A DNA stretch of 64,000 bases from Dehalococcoidia bacterium (GTDB lineage: Bacteria; Chloroflexota; Dehalococcoidia; SHYD01), in assembly GCA_965261835.1 (NCBI GenBank), contig OZ253478.1, positions 2,337,267-2,401,266 of the forward strand, written 5' to 3'. The translations under genes were made by a program, and so were the position numbers. Shown piece after piece: positions 28,799 through 39,615 of this stretch. The notes beneath the pieces are model-generated. The model worked only from the letters and a program-made list of their open reading frames with translations. It had not been told where the DNA came from and ran no database searches. How positions within the stretch are numbered: position 1 is the stretch's first letter; every line of letters begins with the position of its first letter.

Positions 28799-28875
28799 GG
28801 TGGGCGTAGCCGAGCGGTTAAGGCGCCAGGTTGTGGCCCTGGAGACCGAGGGTTCGAATCCCTCCGTCCACCCCA
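28799..28875 (+). tRNA. tRNA-His (anticodon GTG) with encoded G-1 and CCA
   Basis: Manual fold: 8-bp acceptor stem including G-1:C73, anticodon loop TTGTGGC, T-loop GGTTCGAATCC, 3' CCA. Confidence 0.9.
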
Positions 28876-29202: not shown

Positions 29203-29278
29203 GCGCCCGTAGCTCAACGGATAGAGCACCAGACTTCGGATCTGGGGGTTGGGGGTTCGAGTCCCTCCGGGCGTGCCA
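29203..29278 (+). tRNA. tRNA-Arg (anticodon TCG)
   Basis: Manual fold: acceptor GCGCCCG/CGGGCGT, D-arm GCTC..GAGC, anticodon loop CTTCGGA, T-arm GGGGGTTCGAGTCCCTC, CCA encoded. Confidence 0.85.
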
Positions 29279-29430: not shown

Positions 29431-30603
29431 ATGGAGTTTGGCTGGTCAGCAGAAGAGCTAGCATTTCGCGATGAAGTTCGGAGCTTCCTAAAGCAGTTGC
29501 TTCCGCCTGATTGGGATCAGCATGTCCGGACCGACATGCAGGACCACGACTACTCCGTTCGCTTTGCCAAGGAGTTCGCTAAGCAGCGCTGGCGGGTGAT
29601 GCATTGGCCCAAAGAGTACGGGGGACTGGAACTCAACCTCTGGCGGCAGGTCATCTTCTCGGAAGAGCTGGCCTACCGCGGCGTCCCCGGATCATCCGAC
29701 CTCGGGAGCAGCTCCATTGGCCCCATGCTCATGAAGTTCGGTACGGAGCAGCAGAAGGACCAGTACCTGAATGCCATTGCCAACGCCGAGATCACCTTCT
29801 GCCAGCTGTTCACCGAACCCGGCTCCGGCTCCGACCTCGCCTCCTTGCAGACCCGCGCCGTTCACGATGGCGACGACTACGTCATCAACGGGCAGAAGGT
29901 CTTTACCTCCGGCGCACACCATTCCGACCACGGCTGGCTCACCGCGCGCACCGATACCGAGGCCCCCAAACACCGTGGCATCAGCACCTTTCTCATCGAT
30001 ATGAAGACGCCAGGCATCACGATCCGCCCCATGATCAACCTCACCGGCGGCCATGACCAGAACGAGGTCTTCTTCGACGACGTGCGCATCCCCGCCGACA
30101 CGCTGGTGGGCGAGGAGAACCGCGGCTGGTACCAGATCGCCTCATCGCTGGACAGCGCCCGCTCCAGCGTGCCGCGCTTTACCACCGCCAAACGGCTGCT
30201 GGACACCATCGCCAAATACCTGAAAGAGACCAACGGCCCCAATGGCTACGTGCTCGCCAAAGACCCCGTAGTGCGTTCCAAGCTTGCCGAGCTGGCGATT
30301 GAGATCGAGGTCGGCCGATTCCTTGGCTACCAATCGGTATCGTTGCAATACCAGGGCGTGCCATCGGAGAAGGAGGCGTCGGCCTCCAAGATCATGGGTA
30401 CCGAGCTCCTCCAACGCCTCACCAACGCCGCCATGAACATCCTGGGGCTCTACGGGCAGATCAAGCACGGCTCCAAACACGCCCCGCTGCTGGGTCAGAT
30501 CGAGTTCTTCTACAAGGAATCGGTGTACTACACCATCGGCTTCGGCACCTCCGAGATCAACCGCAACATCATCGCCGGCCGCGGCCTTGACCTGCCGCGC
30601 TAA
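29431..30603 (+). CDS. acyl-CoA dehydrogenase family protein
   Basis: 390 aa; N-terminal alpha domain, middle beta-barrel domain and C-terminal catalytic-base region (YTIGFGTSEINRNIIAG) typical of ACADs. Confidence 0.9.
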   Translation: MEFGWSAEELAFRDEVRSFLKQLLPPDWDQHVRTDMQDHDYSVRFAKEFAKQRWRVMHWPKEYGGLELNLWRQVIFSEELAYRGVPGSSDLGSSSIGPMLMKFGTEQQKDQYLNAIANAEITFCQLFTEPGSGSDLASLQTRAVHDGDDYVINGQKVFTSGAHHSDHGWLTARTDTEAPKHRGISTFLIDMKTPGITIRPMINLTGGHDQNEVFFDDVRIPADTLVGEENRGWYQIASSLDSARSSVPRFTTAKRLLDTIAKYLKETNGPNGYVLAKDPVVRSKLAELAIEIEVGRFLGYQSVSLQYQGVPSEKEASASKIMGTELLQRLTNAAMNILGLYGQIKHGSKHAPLLGQIEFFYKESVYYTIGFGTSEINRNIIAGRGLDLPR

Positions 30604-30655
30604 CCCACGCCTACCCACGCCAACCCGCGCGCTAGCCAAGAAGGACCGCTAAGCC

Positions 30656-31786
30656 ATGAACCTCGTCTTGAATGAAATGCACGACATGCTCCGGCGCTCC
30701 GCCCGTGACTTCTTGGAACAGGAATGTCCCAAGTCGCTCGTACGCTTCTGCGAGAACGAACCCAGCGGCTACGCACCGGAGCTCTGGGGAAAGATGGCCC
30801 GCCAGGGATGGCTGAGCATGGTGCTCCCCACCGAGTACGGCGGTACCAACTCGGCCTTTATGGACGTGTGCGTGCTCTACGAAGAGATGGGCCGCGCCAT
30901 AGTCCCCGGCCCATTCGCCGACGTGGTGCTCTCCGAATACCTATTGCTGGACCTCGCCAACGCTGAACAGCAGCGGCGCTACCTCCCCGGTCTCGGCAGC
31001 GGCAACCTCATCGCCACCATCGCCTACACCGAACCCACCGCAAGCTACGACGCCCACGCCATCCAGCTCAGCGCCAGGCAGGAGGAGGAGCGCTACGTGC
31101 TCTCCGGCGCCAAGCTCTTCGTCCCCAACGCCCACATTGCCGACGTGCTGTTGGTGGTGGCCCGCACCGGCCGGTACGTGAACCCCCAAGACGGCCTCAC
31201 CGTCTTCCTGGTGGACCGCAACGCGCCGGGAGTGGAGATTACGGTGCTGGACACCATTGGCTCCGACCGTCAGTGTGAAGTGCTCTTCAACGACGTCACG
31301 GTAGCCCAGAGCAGCGTCCTCGGCACCGTGGACAACGCCTGGCCCGCCCTCAAGCGCTACCTCGACCGCGCCAAGGTGATGACCAGCGTGTGGTCGGTCG
31401 GCGGCGCCTACTACGTGCAAGAGATCACGGTGGATTACGCCAAAAACCGGGTGCAGTTTGGCCGGCCCATCGGCAGTTTCCAGGCCGTGGCCCACAAGTG
31501 CGCCGACATCTCGATTCTCTGCGACGGCATGCGCTCCGCCGCCTACCATGCCGCCTGGCGGCTCGGTGAGGGCTTACCCGCAGACATGGAGATCGCCGTG
31601 GCGAAGGCCTGGACCGCCGAGAGCTACCGCAAGGTTGCCGCCATGGGTACCCAAATCCACGGCGGCGTGGGCTTCATGATGGAGTTCGACATCCAGCTCT
31701 ACTTCCGGCGCGCCAAAATGGCCGAACTGCTCTATGGCAACGCGGAGTACCACAAAGAGTTCGTGGCTCAGGGCATCGGGCTGTAG
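30656..31786 (+). CDS. acyl-CoA dehydrogenase family protein (second subunit/paralog)
   Basis: 376 aa; ACAD domains; tandem with the preceding ACAD, as in heteromeric alpha2beta2 ACAD pairs. Confidence 0.9.
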   Translation: MNLVLNEMHDMLRRSARDFLEQECPKSLVRFCENEPSGYAPELWGKMARQGWLSMVLPTEYGGTNSAFMDVCVLYEEMGRAIVPGPFADVVLSEYLLLDLANAEQQRRYLPGLGSGNLIATIAYTEPTASYDAHAIQLSARQEEERYVLSGAKLFVPNAHIADVLLVVARTGRYVNPQDGLTVFLVDRNAPGVEITVLDTIGSDRQCEVLFNDVTVAQSSVLGTVDNAWPALKRYLDRAKVMTSVWSVGGAYYVQEITVDYAKNRVQFGRPIGSFQAVAHKCADISILCDGMRSAAYHAAWRLGEGLPADMEIAVAKAWTAESYRKVAAMGTQIHGGVGFMMEFDIQLYFRRAKMAELLYGNAEYHKEFVAQGIGL

Positions 31787-31823: not shown

Positions 31824-34800
31824 ATGACGGGCCAGCTATTCACCGACTACTTTCTCACCGCCGGCATCAAGGCCACCGAGGAGTGGCGGGAGTCAGACAC
31901 CGCGTTTGCCGCCTTCCGGGCCACCCTCGGCGCGCGCTACCGGCAGTTCAGCAGCAACCAACAACCCAACGAAGCCACTACCGAGCAGGAGCTGATCCGC
32001 CCGGTCCTGGAGGCGCTGGGATGGACTGACCACCTGCCGCAGCAGGGCACAACCGGTAACGAGGACATCCCGGACAATCTCCTGTTCATCGATGCGGCGT
32101 CCAAGGACCGCGCCGCCGGTCGAGCCAACCCGCAAGAACGCTACCAGGACGCCGCGGTGGTCGAAGAGAGCAAGCAGTTCGGTCTGAAGCTAGACGCCCT
32201 TACCAAAGCCCCCGGACAACACAGCAAGACGCCACACAGCCAGATACTCCAATACCTCTCGACTGCCGAGATCGCGTCGGAGAGCCGGATCCGCTGGGGG
32301 TTCCTGACCAACGGCGGCGTGTGGCGGCTCTACGACCAACGCGCCCGCCCGCGCGCCACCGGCTACTTCGAAGCCGACCTCGGGAAGCTGCTCGACTCTG
32401 GCGACGCAGACGCCCTGCGCGCCTTCTACCTGCTGTTCCGCCGCGACTCGTTCACCCGCACCAAGGGGGCCACCGCCACCTTCCTCGTGCAGGCGCTGGC
32501 CGAGGGCCGCCGCTACGAGGAGCAGGTGGCGCGGAACCTCTCCAGCGTGGTCTTCGATCAGGTCTTCCCCCGGCTGGTAACCGCACTCGCCAGCACGCCA
32601 GGGGTAGCGCTGCCGGAGGCGCGCGATGCCGCGCTGATCTTCCTCTACCGGCTGCTGTTCGTGCTTTACGCCGAGGACCGCGGGCTGCTCCCCGTCAACG
32701 ACGAGCGTTACGAAGACTACGGCCTGCGCAAGCCGGTACGCGATGATATCGCCCACAAGCAGACCACTGGCGCGCCCTTCTCGTCCGTGGCCACCGCCTA
32801 CTACGACCACCTGATGCAGCTGTGGCGACTCATCGACAAGGGCGACGCGTCCATCGGCCTGCCGCCCTACAACGGCGGCCTGTTCGCCGACGAGGCCGCC
32901 CCGCTGCTGGCGCGGGCCCGCCTGCCCGACGCGGTGGTCGCCCCGATCGTCTACGACCTTAGCCACGCTGAAACCGCCGACGGGCGCCGCTTCGTCAACT
33001 ACCGCGACATGTCGGTCCAGCAGCTCGGCTCGATCTACGAGCGGCTGCTGGAGCAGGAGCCGGTCCGCGCCGACGACGGCGGGATCGTCATCCGCCCCAA
33101 CAGCTACGCCCGCAAGGACAGCGGTAGCTTCTACACGCCGCAGGAGCTGGTCGACCTGATCGTCGACCGGACGCTGAAGCCGCTGGCGGAGGAGCGGCTG
33201 CGAGCATTCGAGCAGAAGGCCGCCGCGCTGAAGCACGACCACCGGCCCAAGTCCGAACGGCTGGCCGATCTGCGCAAGCTGGACCCCGCCGAGGCTGTCC
33301 TCGACCTCAAGGTGCTCGACCCCGCCATGGGCAGCGGCCACTTCCTGGTCACCGCCGTCGACTTTCTGTCCGACTACATCGCCGATCTGGTCGAGTCCGT
33401 GCCGGCGGTGCCGGACTGGCTGGATGGCGCGGGCGAGTATGAATCGCCGTTGGTGGGGCGGGTGGCCGCGATTCGGGACGACATTCGCGGCCGGGCCCGG
33501 CAGGCGGGATGGGTGATAGACGAGGAGGCCCAACTCACCGACCAAGCCATCATCCGCCGCATGGTGCTCAAGCGCTGCATCTACGGCGTGGACAAGAACC
33601 CCCTCACCGTGGAGCTGGCCAAGGTCTCGCTCTGGCTCCACAGCTTCACCGTCGGCGCGGCGCTCTCTTTCCTCGACCACCACCTCCGCTGCGGCGACTC
33701 CCTGGTCGGTTTGCGGGTGCGGGAGGCCAGGGACGAGTTGCTCCGGTTTGGCCCCATGTTTACTTCGAGCGCCGTCGCGGGGGCGGAAGCCGCCGCGGCC
33801 GGAATGCAGCGCATCGAGGAGATGTCCGACGCCGACATCTCGGAGGTAGAGCAGTCCGCCGCATTGTTCCGAGGCGTCGAGCAGACTACTGCTGACCTAC
33901 GCGGCCTGCTGGACTTCCTCACCGGCTTGCACTGGCACACCGCGGGGATGAAATCGAAGGAGCGCGCGGCCATCGAGGGGCACATCGCCGTGGCGCTGGG
34001 GGCGGACCAAGCGAACGGCTTGCAGCTACTGGCGCACGGCCCGGCGCATGGCCCAAACGAGAACGCCACCACCGCGCCCGCGGACGGCTCCTCACCCTAC
34101 GCTGCGCTGTGGCAGAACGCCACCGGCATCGCCGACCGTGAAACGTTCCTGCACTGGGAGGCGGCCTTCCCCGGCGTCTGGCAACGGTGGCAGGAAGCGC
34201 AACCCCAAGGCGGCTTCGACGCCGTCATCGGTAACCCGCCATGGGACCACATTGAACAGCCAGAGGTAGAGTGGTTCGCCACTCGTTCGCCTGACATAGC
34301 CCTGGCGCCGACCGCGGCTGCCCGCAAGACCTACATACAGCGGCTGCGCAACGCCGGGGCGCCACTGGCCGCCGAGTTCGACGCCGCCAAGGCGCAGGCC
34401 GATGACCTGGGCCAACTGGTGCGCGCGTCCGGCCATTACCCCCTGCTGAGCGGCGGCCGCATCAACCTCTACTCCCTGTTTGTCGAGCGCGCCATGGGGC
34501 TTGTCAAGCCGGACGGATTCGTCGGGCTGCTCACGCCATCGGGCATCTACGCCGACAAGACCGCCGCCGACTTCTTCAAGTCCATCTCAACCAGCGGGCG
34601 GGTAGCTGGGATATTCGATTTCGAGAATCGCCGCTCCGGAATGAGGCTACCGCACTTCTTCCCTGATGTCGACTCAAGGTTCAAGTTTTGCGCCCTGATA
34701 TTCGGCGGGGAGGAGCGACGATTTGATGAGACCGCGTGCGCCTTCTTCCTCCACGACACCGCGACCATCGAAGACCCCGACCGCTGTTTCCCGCTGGCGC

Positions 34801-35873
34801 CGGCGGACTTTGCCAGGGTGAACCCCAACACCGCCACCGCGCCGATCTTCCGCACCTGCCGCGACGCCGACATCACCCGCGGCATCTACGAGCGGCATCC
34901 GGTGCTGGTGGACCGCTCCGGGGGTGACGAGCGCCGCGCCTGGCCGGTCAAGTTTATGCAGGGGCTATTCAATATGACTTCAGACTCCCACCTGTTCCGG
35001 ACCGCGGCCCAGCTCGAAGCTGCGGGCTTCTACCCGGTCCAGGGCAACCGCTGGAAGAAGGGCGAGGAGACCTACTTGCCGCTGTACCAGGGCCGGATGA
35101 TCCGGCACTTCGACCACCGCGCCAACTCGGTCCGAGTCAACCCTGAGAACACGCACAATCCCTACCTGAGCCAGGAGGTCAGCGCAGCGCAGCACGCGGA
35201 TCCCAGCTTTCTGCCACATACTCAATACTGGGTGCCGGCCGTCGAGGTGGAGTCGGCTTTGCCCGAAAGTCGCGGGTACACGCTAGCGTTCCGTGACATT
35301 ACCAATCCTACCAACATGAGAACGATGATCGCTTCCATCGTTCCAGCGGTAGGTTTTGGGCACACAGCTCCCCTACTTATCGGAGACGACACCCTGGCTG
35401 CCACGTGTCTCGTGGCGAATCTGAATGCCCTATGTCTGGACTTCGTTACGAGACTAAAGGCCCAAGGCACCCATATGAACTGGTTCATCGTCGAGCAACT
35501 CCCCGTCATCGCGCCCGACGGCTACGACCGGCGGTTCGGGGAAAAGACGGCCCGTGAGATCGTCCGTGACCACGTGCTCCGCCTCAGCTACACCGCGCAC
35601 GACATGGCGCCGTTCGCCCGCGACCTCGGCTACGACGGCCCGCCGTTCATCTGGGACGAGGAGGCGCGCCGCCACCTGCGGGCCCGGCTCGACGCGCTGT
35701 ACTTCCACCTCTACGGGCTGAGCAAGGACGACGCGGGCTACATCCTCGGCACCTTCCCCATCGTGCAGCGGCAAGACGAGGCGGCGTTCGGGCGCTACCG
35801 CACGCGCGAGCTAGTGCTGGCATACATGAACGCCCTCGCCGCCGGCGACACCGAGACCGTGATGGCGGTGTAA
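31824..35873 (+). CDS. single-polypeptide type IIG/IIL restriction-modification enzyme (MmeI-like; nuclease + N6-adenine DNA methyltransferase + target-recognition region)
   Basis: N-terminal HsdR-N-like PD-(D/E)xK domain (IPDNLLF...VVEESKQF...QILQYL...GFLTNGGVWRLY); MmeI-like helical region (LLFVLYAEDRGLLP, PYNGGLFADE); MTase motif I KVLDPAMGSGHFLV and motif IV VIGNPPWDHIEQ; ~450-aa C-terminal region with no Walker A (GxxxxGK[ST]) motif seen. Confidence 0.75.
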   Translation: MTGQLFTDYFLTAGIKATEEWRESDTAFAAFRATLGARYRQFSSNQQPNEATTEQELIRPVLEALGWTDHLPQQGTTGNEDIPDNLLFIDAASKDRAAGRANPQERYQDAAVVEESKQFGLKLDALTKAPGQHSKTPHSQILQYLSTAEIASESRIRWGFLTNGGVWRLYDQRARPRATGYFEADLGKLLDSGDADALRAFYLLFRRDSFTRTKGATATFLVQALAEGRRYEEQVARNLSSVVFDQVFPRLVTALASTPGVALPEARDAALIFLYRLLFVLYAEDRGLLPVNDERYEDYGLRKPVRDDIAHKQTTGAPFSSVATAYYDHLMQLWRLIDKGDASIGLPPYNGGLFADEAAPLLARARLPDAVVAPIVYDLSHAETADGRRFVNYRDMSVQQLGSIYERLLEQEPVRADDGGIVIRPNSYARKDSGSFYTPQELVDLIVDRTLKPLAEERLRAFEQKAAALKHDHRPKSERLADLRKLDPAEAVLDLKVLDPAMGSGHFLVTAVDFLSDYIADLVESVPAVPDWLDGAGEYESPLVGRVAAIRDDIRGRARQAGWVIDEEAQLTDQAIIRRMVLKRCIYGVDKNPLTVELAKVSLWLHSFTVGAALSFLDHHLRCGDSLVGLRVREARDELLRFGPMFTSSAVAGAEAAAAGMQRIEEMSDADISEVEQSAALFRGVEQTTADLRGLLDFLTGLHWHTAGMKSKERAAIEGHIAVALGADQANGLQLLAHGPAHGPNENATTAPADGSSPYAALWQNATGIADRETFLHWEAAFPGVWQRWQEAQPQGGFDAVIGNPPWDHIEQPEVEWFATRSPDIALAPTAAARKTYIQRLRNAGAPLAAEFDAAKAQADDLGQLVRASGHYPLLSGGRINLYSLFVERAMGLVKPDGFVGLLTPSGIYADKTAADFFKSISTSGRVAGIFDFENRRSGMRLPHFFPDVDSRFKFCALIFGGEERRFDETACAFFLHDTATIEDPDRCFPLAPADFARVNPNTATAPIFRTCRDADITRGIYERHPVLVDRSGGDERRAWPVKFMQGLFNMTSDSHLFRTAAQLEAAGFYPVQGNRWKKGEETYLPLYQGRMIRHFDHRANSVRVNPENTHNPYLSQEVSAAQHADPSFLPHTQYWVPAVEVESALPESRGYTLAFRDITNPTNMRTMIASIVPAVGFGHTAPLLIGDDTLAATCLVANLNALCLDFVTRLKAQGTHMNWFIVEQLPVIAPDGYDRRFGEKTAREIVRDHVLRLSYTAHDMAPFARDLGYDGPPFIWDEEARRHLRARLDALYFHLYGLSKDDAGYILGTFPIVQRQDEAAFGRYRTRELVLAYMNALAAGDTETVMAV

Positions 35874-35878
35874 GTCTA

Positions 35879-36035
35879 CCCCCGTCATTGCGAGGAGCCT
35901 GCGACGTGGCAATCCGGGGTGGGGTGGCCGGCCGGTCGCGGGGAGTGTCCCCTGCCCCCGCTTCCCCAAGCGCCCCGCCCCCACCCCAGATTGCTTCGCT
36001 GCGGCTCGCAATGACGGGAAGCGGGGGGAGCCGCG
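35879..36035. repeat. ~155-bp long imperfect palindrome (MITE/REP-like element), copy A
   Basis: Terminal inverted repeats CCGTCATTGCGAGG ... CCTCGCAATGACGG; internal complementary arms CAATCCGGGGTGGGG / CCCCACCCCAGATTG; ~95% identical to copy B. Confidence 0.8.
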
Positions 36036-36289
36036 CGTGGGCGTCGAATATATCGCCGAAGGTGGAACCCGGCCAGGCAGCGTCCTTGCAGGCTTGAAGC
36101 GCGTCGCAACCTGCAGAGTGCATGGCAAGTTGCAACTGGCTGGGTTCGCCGGTAGTATCGTCCGCATCAGGCAGGAATGATAGTGCGGGCTGACCGACGA
36201 ATTATGAGTTCCGCATGGGGCTATCAGCTATGGCACCCGATGCAGTAACGGTGTTGCTGAATTTGTAATCGACCGAAAGGAGCGCTGGT

Positions 36290-36772
36290 ATGGCGGGAGG
36301 TCAACATGGGTTTACTTTCACCATCTTTGGACTCTTTGGCGCCGCAATAGTATTCGGAATCCCGTGGCTCGCTGGGAAGATTCTGCCTTTTATGGAATCC
36401 CCCAGCTTGGGCAGCCCGACAGGCTGGGTATTGTGCGGGGTCGGCGGCGTTGCCGGGGTTATTCTAGCCCAGATCGCGCTCACCGGCTGGCACAAAACGT
36501 GGCGGTCATGGGCCACATATGCCCTCCTTGTGGGTTCCATCTATGGAATTTTCGCCATCGCAGGGTGGTACATTGAGGCCAATCCAGACTCGGCCCTGCT
36601 GGAGACAATTACAGAACTGGGCCAAAATTTGTCTTTAGAGCCGGAGAATTTAGTCCTCATATTGTTTGTCGGTATTCCCATAGTGTTTATCGGTATTCCC
36701 ATATTGCTGTCCGTTATATTGTTCGCCCTTGTACTCTGGAAGGGGGACAGCAGCGGGAAATCTCGTCGGTAA
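36290..36772 (+). CDS. small polytopic membrane protein (4-5 TM), lower-GC cargo gene between the two palindromic repeats
   Basis: AAGGAG 7 nt upstream of ATG; Gly/Ile/Phe-rich TM segments; local GC clearly below flanks. Confidence 0.55.
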   Translation: MAGGQHGFTFTIFGLFGAAIVFGIPWLAGKILPFMESPSLGSPTGWVLCGVGGVAGVILAQIALTGWHKTWRSWATYALLVGSIYGIFAIAGWYIEANPDSALLETITELGQNLSLEPENLVLILFVGIPIVFIGIPILLSVILFALVLWKGDSSGKSRR

Positions 36773-36786
36773 CGCGAGGGGGTGGC

Positions 36787-36940
36787 TCTCCCCCCGTCAT
36801 TGCGAGGAGCCCGCGACGTGGCAATCCGGGGTGGGGTGGCCGGCCGGTCGCGGGGAGTGTCCCCTGCCCCCGCTTCCCCACGCGCCCCTCCCCCGCCCCA
36901 GATTGCTTCGCTGCGGCTCGCAATGACGAGAAGCGGGGAG
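36787..36940. repeat. ~155-bp long imperfect palindrome (MITE/REP-like element), copy B
   Basis: Near-identical to copy A over ~150 bp, same orientation, 908 bp downstream. Confidence 0.8.
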
Positions 36941-36996
36941 CCGAGTACCTTGGGCAGCGGCATCTGGTCCGCCGTGTCCGAGTTGAGGATATGGTG

Positions 36997-37833
36997 TTAC
37001 TGGCTATTCCCCTCGCTGCTATTCGCCACCAAATAGTTCACGAAGGCCGAGCAGGCTACAACCATATAGCGAGCTTCAGGGAGCCCCACTTGCGGCGCTT
37101 CCTTTATCCCATGGCGGACGCCATCCTCGTCACTCGTCCAGTTGTACATGTTGTTCCACGCTTGCTTGAGCTGAGGGTGGCCTTCTAGCTTCTGTAGACC
37201 CTTCGCGATATCGGCCTTCGAATCTCCTGCCGCTACCTGGACGGCTGATTCGACTGCCGATATCGACTCTTTGATAGCGTTGCGGAAATCGGGGGTGTTA
37301 CGGTCACTCAGAAGTGTAAGAGCTTGCCTGATATGCTGCGATGCAGCGTGAAATAGGTCCGACAACGAGGCAGCCGCATCAACCGCAGCTAGCTCTGCAT
37401 TATTGGTAATGGGGACTATCGCATTACCGACAAATCTGTAGGCGGACCCTTCCCTGCTTAGCATGTCGTTCGCATCGCTGACGTCCTCTTCGACTTCTCG
37501 CTTGCGCAGAAGATACTCCAAGACAGTGTAGACCTCATCCCAGTTTGCTTCTAAGTACCAGTCCCGAAGGACGTCTATCGCGGTATCAGGGAAACTCGAC
37601 GCAAAATCGGCATTTGGCAATTCGTCAGATGGCAATTCGTCAGAAAGCTTACCCACTATTTCGGTCCATACACTTTTTACTAACCCGTACCCATGAGAAA
37701 AACGCCCCATGACGAAATATCGATCTCGCAGGAAGTTCCAGATTGCATTCCTGAGCCGATCGTCCATCTCTTCAAATTGATGGAGCTGTGACCGGTCGAG
37801 CTTGTAGCCGTGACGTTCGGAGAAGGTTGCCAT
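36997..37833 (-). CDS. hypothetical protein, putative abortive-infection (Abi)/HEPN-like defence protein
   Basis: N-terminus MATFSERHGY...LRNAIWNFL recalls Abi-family N-terminal domains; C-terminal helical region FRNAIKESISAVESAV resembles degenerate HEPN-type motifs; lower GC than surroundings; ATG 37833 preferred (TTG 37851 alternative). Confidence 0.45.
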   Translation of the reverse strand: MATFSERHGYKLDRSQLHQFEEMDDRLRNAIWNFLRDRYFVMGRFSHGYGLVKSVWTEIVGKLSDELPSDELPNADFASSFPDTAIDVLRDWYLEANWDEVYTVLEYLLRKREVEEDVSDANDMLSREGSAYRFVGNAIVPITNNAELAAVDAAASLSDLFHAASQHIRQALTLLSDRNTPDFRNAIKESISAVESAVQVAAGDSKADIAKGLQKLEGHPQLKQAWNNMYNWTSDEDGVRHGIKEAPQVGLPEARYMVVACSAFVNYLVANSSEGNSQ

Positions 37834-37989
37834 GAAGCTATTATGCCACAATCTATGGCCGTTAAATCAGATGGAGAATCGTCACGCTCCATGACAACTG
37901 CCCAGTGTGCGCTCACCCAATTGGGGTACGCTACAATAACAGGCACACGAACAGCCGCACGCGGCCCGGTTAGGTGAGGGCAGGGCGCC

Positions 37990-39615
37990 ATGAATAACGC
38001 AGAACTTATCGTCAAGATGCTCGAGGCGGCAGGCGTGCGCTGGGTCTTCGGCATCCCCAGCGGCCCGGTGCTGCCCCTGATCGAAGCGCTGCGGCACAGC
38101 TCGATCCGCTACGTGCTGACCGCCAACGAAACCTCGGCCGGGTTCATGGCGCACACCGTGGGCGCCATGAGCGGTGTGCCGGGCGTCTGCGTGTCCACGT
38201 TGGGCCCCGGCGCCACCAACCTTGCCACCGGGGTCGGCGCGGCGTGGCTGGACCGGGCGCCGGTGATCGCCATCACCTGCAACGTGGAGACGGCTTGGCT
38301 CGACCGGCGGGTTCAGATGCGCATCGACCACCACGCGCTATTCGCGCCGCTGACCAAGGCGAGTCTCCCGCTGCGGCGCGACCGGGTAGCAGAGCGGTTG
38401 GGGCAGGCGCTGGCCCTGTGCCGGGCCGAACCGCCCGGTCCGGTGCACCTCGACCTGCCGGAGGACGTGGGCCTGGCGCCTGCCTCCGAGACCACTGCGC
38501 CGCCCGACGCCGCGGTGGCGCCGGCGGCGGCGCTGCCGCCCATCGGCCCGGACGTGCTGGCTGCGCTGGCCGCCGCATTGCAGCGCAGCCAACGGCCGCT
38601 GCTGGTGGGCGGGCTGGCCTTGACCAGAACCAAGAGCCGCCAGCGCTTACTGGAGTTCATCGAACGTCAACACCTGCCCTTTGCCCTCACGCTTCACGCC
38701 AAAGGGTTCCTGCCTGAGAGCCATCCCAATTACGTGGGCGTCATTGGCCGGGCGCGCCGCAGCGACGTCGCGGCCTTCGTGCGCCAGGCCGATCTCATCA
38801 TCGGCATGGGTTATGACCCCATCGAGATCAACTACGAAGAATGGGTGGGCGCGATCCCCGTCATGCACCTGAGCACTGAGATTGCCGACGTCGCCGCGCC
38901 GGTCCGTACCCTGCTGAACGCCGGGGGCGACCTGGAAGCCGCCTGGCCGGCCTTGGCAGCCTTGCCGCCGCAGCAACATGCGTGGACCGTTGGGGAATTC
39001 ACCGCGCACCGGCGCGCGCTGGAGCGCGCGTTGCGGCCGGAGCGGCCGGAGCGGCCCGTGAACCATGGCCTCGCTCCCCATGACGTGCTCGATGCGCTCC
39101 GGGCGCGGCTGCCTACGGACGCGATCCTGACCTACGACGTGGGGGCCCATACCCACCAGATCGCTACCCAATGGCGCACCGACGAACCCCACACCTGCTT
39201 CTCCACCAATGGCTGGTCGTCTATGGGGTTCGGGCTGCCGGCCACCTACGCGGCCAAGCTCGTCCACCCCAATCGCGTGGTGGTAGGCGTGGTGGGCGAT
39301 GGGTGCTTCCAGATGACGGTGGGCGAGGTCAGCGTGGCAAAACGCCTGGGTTTGGCCGCGCCGGTGGTGGTGCTGAACGACGGCTGGCTGGGCCTGCTGA
39401 AAGTGAAGCAGGAACGCAAGGGCTATGGGCTGTCCGGGGTGGACATCGGCGAGCCAGCGGTGCCGCCGTCCGACTATTTTGGCGTGCCATGCCGCGCCGT
39501 CCGCAATGCAGACGAGCTGACGGCGGCCCTGGATTGGGCGCTCACCCTCGAAGGCCCCAGCGTCATTGAGGCGTTGGTCGACGTGGCGCCCTACTCCACC
39601 ACCGTCTACGACTGA
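37990..39615 (+). CDS. thiamine-pyrophosphate-dependent enzyme, acetolactate-synthase-large-subunit-like
   Basis: N-terminal TPP-pyrimidine domain (GVRWVFGIPSGPVLPL), central domain, C-terminal TPP-binding motif GDGCFQM...N; 541 aa. Confidence 0.8.
   Translation: MNNAELIVKMLEAAGVRWVFGIPSGPVLPLIEALRHSSIRYVLTANETSAGFMAHTVGAMSGVPGVCVSTLGPGATNLATGVGAAWLDRAPVIAITCNVETAWLDRRVQMRIDHHALFAPLTKASLPLRRDRVAERLGQALALCRAEPPGPVHLDLPEDVGLAPASETTAPPDAAVAPAAALPPIGPDVLAALAAALQRSQRPLLVGGLALTRTKSRQRLLEFIERQHLPFALTLHAKGFLPESHPNYVGVIGRARRSDVAAFVRQADLIIGMGYDPIEINYEEWVGAIPVMHLSTEIADVAAPVRTLLNAGGDLEAAWPALAALPPQQHAWTVGEFTAHRRALERALRPERPERPVNHGLAPHDVLDALRARLPTDAILTYDVGAHTHQIATQWRTDEPHTCFSTNGWSSMGFGLPATYAAKLVHPNRVVVGVVGDGCFQMTVGEVSVAKRLGLAAPVVVLNDGWLGLLKVKQERKGYGLSGVDIGEPAVPPSDYFGVPCRAVRNADELTAALDWALTLEGPSVIEALVDVAPYSTTVYD

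Follow-up and report, generated by a model that had tools for sequence, protein, structure and literature searches.

The window analysed here, a 64,000-nt stretch of a Dehalococcoidia genome assembly, contains a block of genes in which two acyl-CoA dehydrogenase genes are followed by a type IIG restriction-modification (RM) gene, a gene for a small membrane protein (TM gene), a convergent AbiJ-like defence gene and a gene for a thiamine-pyrophosphate (TPP) enzyme (Table 1). Two near-identical palindromic repeats, copies A and B, sit behind two genes of what is a variable phage-defence island: copy A begins 2 nt past the RM stop codon, and copy B begins 15 nt past that of the TM gene, with 51 nt left between its end and the stop of the AbiJ-like gene. 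The TM gene was predicted to have a strong Shine-Dalgarno sequence and to encode a membrane protein, and it does (AAAGGAG, 7 nt before the ATG at 36290; four helices), the protein having no match in Pfam or PADLOC. By Pfam, none of the eight neighbouring genes encodes a transposase or integrase domain. According to the original prediction, the segment between the copies spans ~0.9 kb and stands out by its low GC content against a background of ~65%. The distance is in fact 750 nt (912 nt from start to start), and the window mean is 60.7%. The segment is indeed GC-poor (55%), but copy B does not end it: the low-GC stretch continues through the AbiJ-like gene (52%) to about 37900. The same two genes have low GC3 values (TM 0.60, AbiJ-like 0.59); those of the dehydrogenase, RM and TPP genes are 0.86-0.87. 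The RM gene, with a GC3 of 0.86, looks host-like. All named homologues of the flanking dehydrogenase come from Chloroflexi/Dehalococcoidia MAGs, and since the nearest non-identical one has only 68% identity, the host appears to be a poorly sampled, Chloroflexota-like lineage.

Table 1. Genes, repeat copies and hairpin units at the locus (window coordinates).
Feature	Position	Strand	Source or score
Two acyl-CoA dehydrogenase genes	29431-31786	+	Pfam
Type IIG restriction-modification gene, Eco57I/MmeI-like, 1349 aa	31824..35873	+	Pfam, PADLOC
Copy A: head-head doublet of REP units with outward CGTC tags and a ~19-nt 3' extension	35875..36036	+	
Copy A left unit, CGTC-ATTGC-GA-[GGAGCCTGCGAC]-GTG-GCAAT-CCG	35883..35916	+	profile HMM E=3e-8
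Copy A spacer, 70 nt: complementary ends GGGGTGGGG/CCCCACCCC and hairpin GGGGAGTGTCCCC	35917..35986	.	
Copy A right unit, CGTC-ATTGC-GA-[GCCGCAGC]-GAA-GCAAT-CTG (read on -)	35987..36016	-	profile HMM E=1.2e-8
TM gene, 160-aa membrane protein, about four hydrophobic segments	36290..36772	+	
Copy B: second doublet copy, strain-specific	36787..36946	+	
Copy B left unit	36795..36828	+	profile HMM E=5e-8
Copy B right unit	36899..36928	-	profile HMM E=1.2e-8
AbiJ-like defence gene, AbiJ_NTD4; PADLOC candidate PDC-S32	36997..37833	-	Pfam, PADLOC
Thiamine-pyrophosphate (TPP) enzyme gene	37990-39615	+	Pfam

Copies A and B were predicted to be near-identical direct repeats, each an internally long imperfect palindrome, and both features are borne out. 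A repeat search of the window aligned 35875-36026 with 36787-36938 at 96% identity over 152 nt, and blastn, allowing one indel in a G-run, extended the pair to 35875-36033/36 and 36787-36943/46 (95% over 159 nt), so that overall the copies are 95-96% identical. Both have a GC content of 74%. The palindrome is made up of outer arms, CCCGTCATTGCGAG and CTCGCAATGACGGG, complementary at 14 of 14 positions, of inner arms of 16 nt, GCAATCCGGGGTGGGG and CCCCACCCCAGATTGC, which are 94% complementary, and of a small central hairpin (at 35940-35952 in copy A). By inspection, the element ends are CCGTCATTGCGAG and CTCGCAATGACGG. Terminal inverted repeats are therefore present as proposed, but the 14-mer originally given for them, CCGTCATTGCGAGG, has one mismatch in the right arm. 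Beyond the palindrome, the similarity between A and B continues for 5 nt at the left end and for about 19 nt at the right end. Each copy folds as one long imperfect hairpin, and the check on RNA folding that had been suggested came out clearly positive: the z-scores for the two copies are -5.4 and -5.5 as RNA and -5.3 and -3.7 as DNA, and when both strands are compared with dinucleotide shuffles the ranges are -5.1 to -5.7 (RNA) and -3.7 to -6.1 (DNA). A search for target-site duplications, also suggested, found no direct repeat flanking either copy. Rfam at gathering thresholds assigned no family to the repeats and reported four tRNAs over the whole window; at permissive E-values, the region 35000-38000 yielded chance-level matches only and no family.

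The arms of each copy resolve into smaller modules. Each copy is an inverted (head-head) doublet of a ~35-nt REP-like unit that carries a CGTC tag, with the tags facing outward (CGTC at 35883-35886 and 36795-36798; GACG at 36013-36016 and 36925-36928). The spacer between the units is 76 nt long if everything between the left GCAAT and the right ATTGC is counted. The consensus of 70 parsed units, taken from the window and from the other loci, reads (C)CGTC / ATTGC / GA / inner hairpin / G(T/A)(G/A) / GCAAT / C(C/T)N. The ATTGC...GCAAT stem occurs in all four window units and in 70 of the 70 parsed units; this 5-bp stem is followed by an internal loop, GA against G(T/A)(G/A), and by an inner stem-loop (stem 1-6 bp, loop 3-7 nt). 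Sequence varies in the inner hairpin while pairing is kept, as in GGGC-GAA-GCCC, GGCC-GCTA-GGCC, GCCC-CTTA-GGGC and GGCGCG-GAA-CGCGCC; in another form, exemplified by G-GA-GC-GAA-GC-GA-C, G.A pairs occur in tandem. For 32 unique inner sequences the terminal stem averages 2.09 bp, compared with 0.59 +/- 0.15 in 2000 shuffles (maximum 1.09), and the second inner pair is C-G in 11, G-C in 8 and G.A in 11. Because the variation of the inner sequence is compensatory, the unit is a real hairpin. The tails are CCG and CTG in the window; across the 70 units the commonest tail starts are CTCT (20), CCAG (18) and CTCA (11), GC-rich loci having mostly CCAG. Two inverted units joined by a spacer with complementary ends together give a single long hairpin.

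A profile HMM was built from 248 unique units. Scanned against the 64-kb window, it found exactly four units, all within copies A and B (E 1e-8 to 5e-8), the next match having E = 1.5; no unit is present in the other 62 kb of the window or in the flanks of the related loci. The outer arms separated by a 95-125-nt gap match 14 viral contigs with GC contents of 38-70%, and all 14 share one layout: CGTCATTGCGAG, then GAAGCAATCC(A/G)G, a variable centre and the mirror image. The pattern of a single unit is found in at least 120 viral contigs. A set of 132 viral loci (1.24 Mb; 30-72% GC) contains 261 units, in which neighbours are arranged with tags outward 47 times, with tags inward 3 times and in tandem 27 times; the gap in the tags-outward pairs has a median of 26 nt and a range of 10-86. 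In viral contigs, phage structural genes are found on both sides of the elements, and paired copies do not enclose a transposase. Among GTDB genomes, a 19-mer from the inner arm gave four matches, two of which are true relatives, namely Chloroflexi/Dehalococcoidia MAGs (loci L018 and L017). Four JGI metagenome contigs contain the left 33-mer letter for letter, followed by quite different sequence, and the central 24-mer has zero matches in the JGI metagenomes. Since the 33-mer recurs with different centres and the central 24-mer is absent, the conserved module is the ~35-nt unit; the 76-nt centre appears to be private to the lineage of the window. A blastn search of a plasmid collection in distant mode returned one 46-nt partial match, from Novosphingobium. 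Small GIY-YIG nuclease genes, considered as companions of such repeats, were not detected by motif scan in about 1.4 Mb of unit-bearing loci, and the association was dropped. The proposed REP- or MITE-like family thus exists at the level of the units, which are widespread with the same architecture in many unrelated contigs, but not at the level of the whole 160-bp element, which in the databases scanned occurs nowhere besides the window pair and the orthologous site in relatives. Occurrence as this pair alone, named in the original prediction as a refuting outcome, is accordingly half true: at full length the element is confined to this pair in the window and otherwise to the orthologous site in relatives; the terminal units are widespread nonetheless.

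A high copy number within a genome is a defining trait of REPs. By this measure the four units (two doublets) within 64 kb, confined to one island, look low, and no further units were found elsewhere in loci L023, L026, L027 and L030. In other respects the resemblance to one published class is close. The study on the CGTC-tagged REP superfamily (Di Nocera, De Gregorio & Rocco 2013, BMC Genomics 14:522; PMC3733652) describes an unpaired terminal CGTC (or TGTC/CCTC) tag, stems of 8-9 bp in which A-T pairs almost always come first, loops of 4-5 nt (atypical in Bradyrhizobium CGTC-1) and short unpaired tails that fit CCA. Most of these repeats are presented there as HH dimers, that is, with tags outside; the spacers measure 20-100 bp and often end in complementary sequences or contain small stem-loops. 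The repeats occupy sites downstream of ORFs where the adjoining genes are co-directional or convergent, have no associated transposase, and form four families, CGTC-1 to -4, mostly in Alphaproteobacteria (PMC3733652). Compared by this published description, the window units have the same tag and a stem that opens with A-T and T-A; of their two tails, CCG is of the CC(A/G) type and the other is CTG. Their doublets likewise have outward tags and a 76-nt spacer with complementary ends and a central hairpin, and they too are located downstream of ORFs, co-directional or convergent, with no linked transposase. Besides the copy number, there are two differences. The window stem is bipartite, with 5 bp, an internal loop and a variable inner hairpin, so that the published sizes of 8-9 bp and 4-5 nt are not matched, and the host appears to belong to Chloroflexota, whereas the repeats covered by PMC3733652 are mostly alphaproteobacterial. 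No consensus string matching the window unit is present in the text and supplements of that paper. A literature search by sequence strings produced unrelated primer matches only, and the RepRanger paper contained nothing relevant. The dRS3 repeat of Neisseria has the form CGTC-ATTCCC...GGGAAT-CCAG. On the evidence of tag, orientation and spacer, the repeats appear to belong to a known class, CGTC-tagged REP dimers, and not to a new kind of element.

Other systems of palindromic repeats fit less well. REPINs, as Bertels and Rainey are said to have described them in 2011, are two inverted REPs mobilised by RAYT transposases; they are characterised by a GTAG tag and by a cognate RAYT (Y1 transposase) gene that has the same REPs on both sides. 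The window copies resemble them in having two inverted units with a short spacer that form one long intergenic hairpin, but the tag is CGTC rather than GTAG, and no RAYT gene is found among the eight neighbours in the 64-kb window. REP/RAYT systems are also the subject of Nunvar et al. 2010 (PMC2817692). With classical MITEs the copies have in common that they are short and non-coding and have 14-bp perfect terminal inverted repeats. Unlike MITEs, however, they lack a target-site duplication, the similarity between A and B runs past the terminal inverted repeats on both sides, and what is conserved across genomes is a sub-terminal hairpin unit and not the whole element, the centre being private. 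Integron attC sites have core sites RYYYAAC/GTTRRRY and depend on an integrase. They are similar to the window copies in being imperfect palindromes of about 60-140 nt that separate small genes of foreign composition within a variable array, but units of the window type are also found between phage structural genes. An identification with attC was rejected, as the RYYYAAC/GTTRRRY core sites are absent at the ends and no integrase is present among the neighbours.

A comparison with related strains had been recommended. The TM protein has eight homologues, and four of them are encoded in related metagenomic genomes at syntenic loci (L023, L024, L026 and L030) that are 92-98% identical to the window at the nucleotide level. 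The gene order ACAD-ACAD-RM-A-TM...TPP is shared by L023, L026 and L030; L024, whose contig begins inside the spacer between A and TM, covers TM onward. An orthologous copy A (L023 7588-7747, L026 7762-7945, L030 5702-5859) lies directly behind the RM stop in all three relatives that reach that far. The relatives thus keep copy A and the TM gene, but copy B and the AbiJ-like gene are absent from all four. Their homology to the window ends at 'TAACGCGAGG' (window 36779), 7 nt before copy B. After the TM gene they have ~130 nt, then an RM-gene remnant and then other small cassettes, the remnant consisting of a short piece from the 5' part of the gene fused to its final ~100 nt, 84-93% identical to the intact gene. 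The copy A of L030 equals the inferred ancestral sequence, from which copy A of the window differs by two substitutions and one G and copy B by three substitutions and one G. With so few differences from the ancestral A, copy B is a paralogue no older than the divergence among the strains. The copy A of L026 has acquired one more unit, which indicates that the units are dynamic, and also a partial tandem duplication; the same locus is missing about 206 nt, counted from a point in copy A some 8 nt short of the right end of the repeat shared by A and B. Judging from these alignments, copy A is an old resident directly behind the type IIG RM stop and represents the ancestral state, and copy B is a recent second copy confined to this strain, at a breakpoint where the AbiJ-like gene has replaced the RM-gene remnant and the other cassettes. 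Copy B does not travel generally with AbiJ, since the context of the nearest AbiJ homologue (L029, 73% identity) has no REP nearby.

How copy B arose can be approached from the same comparison. Recombination or import is its most likely source and transposition a less likely one. With somewhat better than even confidence, we favour a recombinational origin, which could have been either gene conversion or unequal exchange through a module consisting of the RM 3' end and the element, or an allelic import together with AbiJ from the island of a sister strain. Three observations favour such an origin: the similarity between A and B exceeds the palindrome on both sides, both flanks of copy B are novel relative to the relatives, and the relatives have an RM 3' end at the equivalent position. 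The left flank of copy B was also aligned with the RM 3' end and its remnants; the local alignments were not significant, with matches of 8 nt only. The main alternative is that copy B represents a fresh REPIN-like hop of the doublet into the TM/AbiJ intergenic region, performed by a putative enzyme. That copy B is only three substitutions away from the inferred ancestral A, that it forms a 74%-GC island within foreign DNA of 52-55% GC, that L026 has acquired an extra unit inside its copy A and that the unit family is clearly dispersed would all be compatible with a hop. However, the shared sequence outruns the palindrome at both ends (by 5 and about 19 nt), and no transposase dedicated to CGTC REPs is known (PMC3733652) or present among the neighbours. 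Moreover, both flanks of copy B are novel in the comparison with the four relatives, and for this reason there is no empty site to compare. Taken together, we regard a hop as rather unlikely.

More speculatively, the unit might be the recognition hairpin of a putative widespread protein that binds or cleaves DNA or RNA, and the doublets might then serve as exchange junctions for defence cassettes, somewhat like attC sites. Two sets of observations point in this direction. The unit is nearly letter-conserved across contigs of 30% to 72% GC, phage included, with no known transposase, and three independent rearrangement breakpoints coincide with an element end or lie no more than about 12 nt from one: the left edge of copy B, the 206-nt indel of L026 that starts in the right-hand extension of copy A, and the RM-3'-end remnants at old junctions. 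We nevertheless consider this improbable. Less probable still is a plain tandem-duplication scar, in which a private palindrome that belongs to no family was duplicated once. Neither the whole 160-bp element nor its centre is found elsewhere, and there are just two copies in the window, but the ~35-nt units at the ends match (E around 1e-8) a family that is large and dispersed and has the same doublet orientation and covarying inner hairpins. The scar reading is contradicted for the units and holds for the private 76-nt centre.

The original prediction also considered the TM segment to be cargo mobilised between two MITEs. Since the relatives have copy A and the TM gene without copy B, the TM gene would not be cargo of the repeat pair and seems merely to lie between two 3'-end repeats. 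A composite mobile unit, with the repeats as the ends of a MITE-flanked element that brought the TM gene in, is suggested by the two direct, 95%-identical repeats that bracket a gene of foreign composition, but it is largely refuted, and very improbable, given that at this very locus four relatives have the TM gene accompanied by copy A alone, that more distant TM homologues in unrelated contexts (L027 and L028) have no unit within 8 kb, that the low GC and low GC3 run on through the AbiJ-like gene past copy B, and that there is neither a target-site duplication nor a transposase among the neighbours.

The reading that we consider likely as a whole is therefore that of CGTC REP-type doublets, copy A being old and located behind the RM gene and copy B recent and strain-specific, with the TM gene not carried as cargo and the doublets acting as 3' hairpins and as breakage-prone palindromes. 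As to the first of these roles, the hairpins would stabilise the 3' ends of the RM, TM and AbiJ transcripts or serve there as terminators that lack a U-tract, and the copy B hairpin would insulate the convergent TM and AbiJ genes from each other. Such a 3'-end role of the RNA is plausible. No U-tract follows the hairpin of copy A or of copy B on either strand, so the copies are not canonical intrinsic terminators, and the terminator reading in this strict sense is ruled out for both hairpins. As to the second role, we infer that the long DNA palindromes would favour breakage and rearrangement in the defence island.

The locus documents a CGTC-type REP doublet in a Chloroflexota-like genome, the unit being present both in its defence island and in numerous phage contigs, and it permits a sharper description of the unit as a conserved outer stem with a covarying inner hairpin. 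It also illustrates the turnover, between near-identical strains, of a small island composed of a type IIG RM gene, a small membrane protein gene and an AbiJ-like gene, in which palindromic repeats and RM-gene remnants are located at the joints. For annotation, it is worth pointing out that the repeats create spurious ORFs, as had been anticipated (e.g. 35811-36167(-), 36541-36963(-) and 36782-37036(+)), and that the resulting peptides of the VIARS.../...LAMT type should not be called genes.

Remnants of a restriction-modification (RM) gene, carrying an internal deletion, are found downstream of the membrane-protein (TM) gene in four related syntenic loci (L023, L024, L026 and L030; see table). 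In these remnants, a 5' piece resembling window positions 32268-32329 is joined to the final ~100 nt of such a gene, and additional short fragments similar to the 3' end of the gene are present at other cassette junctions of the relatives. No RM-gene remnants were found within the window. The remnants in the relatives suggest that nested insertion or replacement has occurred repeatedly at RM sequences of the defence island.

The REP-like units themselves are gained and lost between close relatives, as is evident from the comparison of the L026 orthologue of copy A with the window. In L026, the first ~27 nt of copy A are partly duplicated in tandem, and a third, extra unit lies within its centre. 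This locus also lacks ~206 nt of window sequence (roughly 36028-36233), a gap that begins inside the repeat shared by copies A and B, ~8 nt short of its right-hand end. In the window, GGGAAGCGGGGGGAG (36016-36030), the 3' extension of copy A, and CTGCCCCCGCTTCCC (35952-35966), a stretch inside that copy, show 93% complementarity, which would allow an alternative hairpin competing with the long hairpin of copy A. Since copy B shows a weaker form of this pairing and L026 has lost it, the complementarity might simply be due to chance in G/C-rich sequence.

Positions of features in the window and in related or unit-bearing loci
Feature	Sequence	Positions	Strand	Remark
RM-gene remnants/fragments	L023	8616-8751, 9745-9775
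RM-gene remnant	L024	762-895
RM-gene remnant	L026	8568-8674
RM-gene remnants/fragments	L030	6733-6872, 10178-10234
Orthologous copy A	L026	7728-7945
AbiJ-like gene	window	37000-37833	-	PADLOC candidate system PDC-S32, E=5e-82
tRNA-His(GTG), tRNA-Arg(TCG)	window	28800-28875, 29203-29278
REP-unit tandem arrays	L002	6428-6602, 8520-8755
REP-unit tandem arrays	L011	688-814, 3346-3584, 5499-5676
REP-unit tandem array	L039	11383-11521
REP-unit tandem array	L072	2727-2818

The ~45 nt located 5' of the TM start codon, TGTTGCTGAATTTGTAATCGACAGAAAGGAG, are conserved (window 36240-36289; about 7950-8000 in L027 and L028, loci of more distant homologues), even where the TM homologues are only 50-56% identical and their contexts unrelated. 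This stretch, in which a small hairpin (window 36243-36259) is flagged as terminator-like, may represent a promoter or leader element. Within the gene, an internal 21-nt tandem duplication at 36658-36699 (CATATTGTTTGTCGGTATTCC / CATAGTGTTTATCGGTATTCC, 90%) produces the repeated FVGIPIV / FIGIPIL in the last membrane segment.

The nearest database relative of the AbiJ-like protein, with P0009, the identical entry from the source genome itself, set aside, shows only 73% identity, and the GC3 of the AbiJ-like gene (0.59) is on a par with that of the TM gene. Two tRNA genes lie ~3 kb upstream of the island.

The REP unit family also forms clusters, in this case in AT-rich hosts. Tandem arrays of the CGTC-tagged unit, with periods of ~33-54 nt, are present in low-GC (38-39%) phage-like contigs, where they adjoin tail-fibre-like genes.
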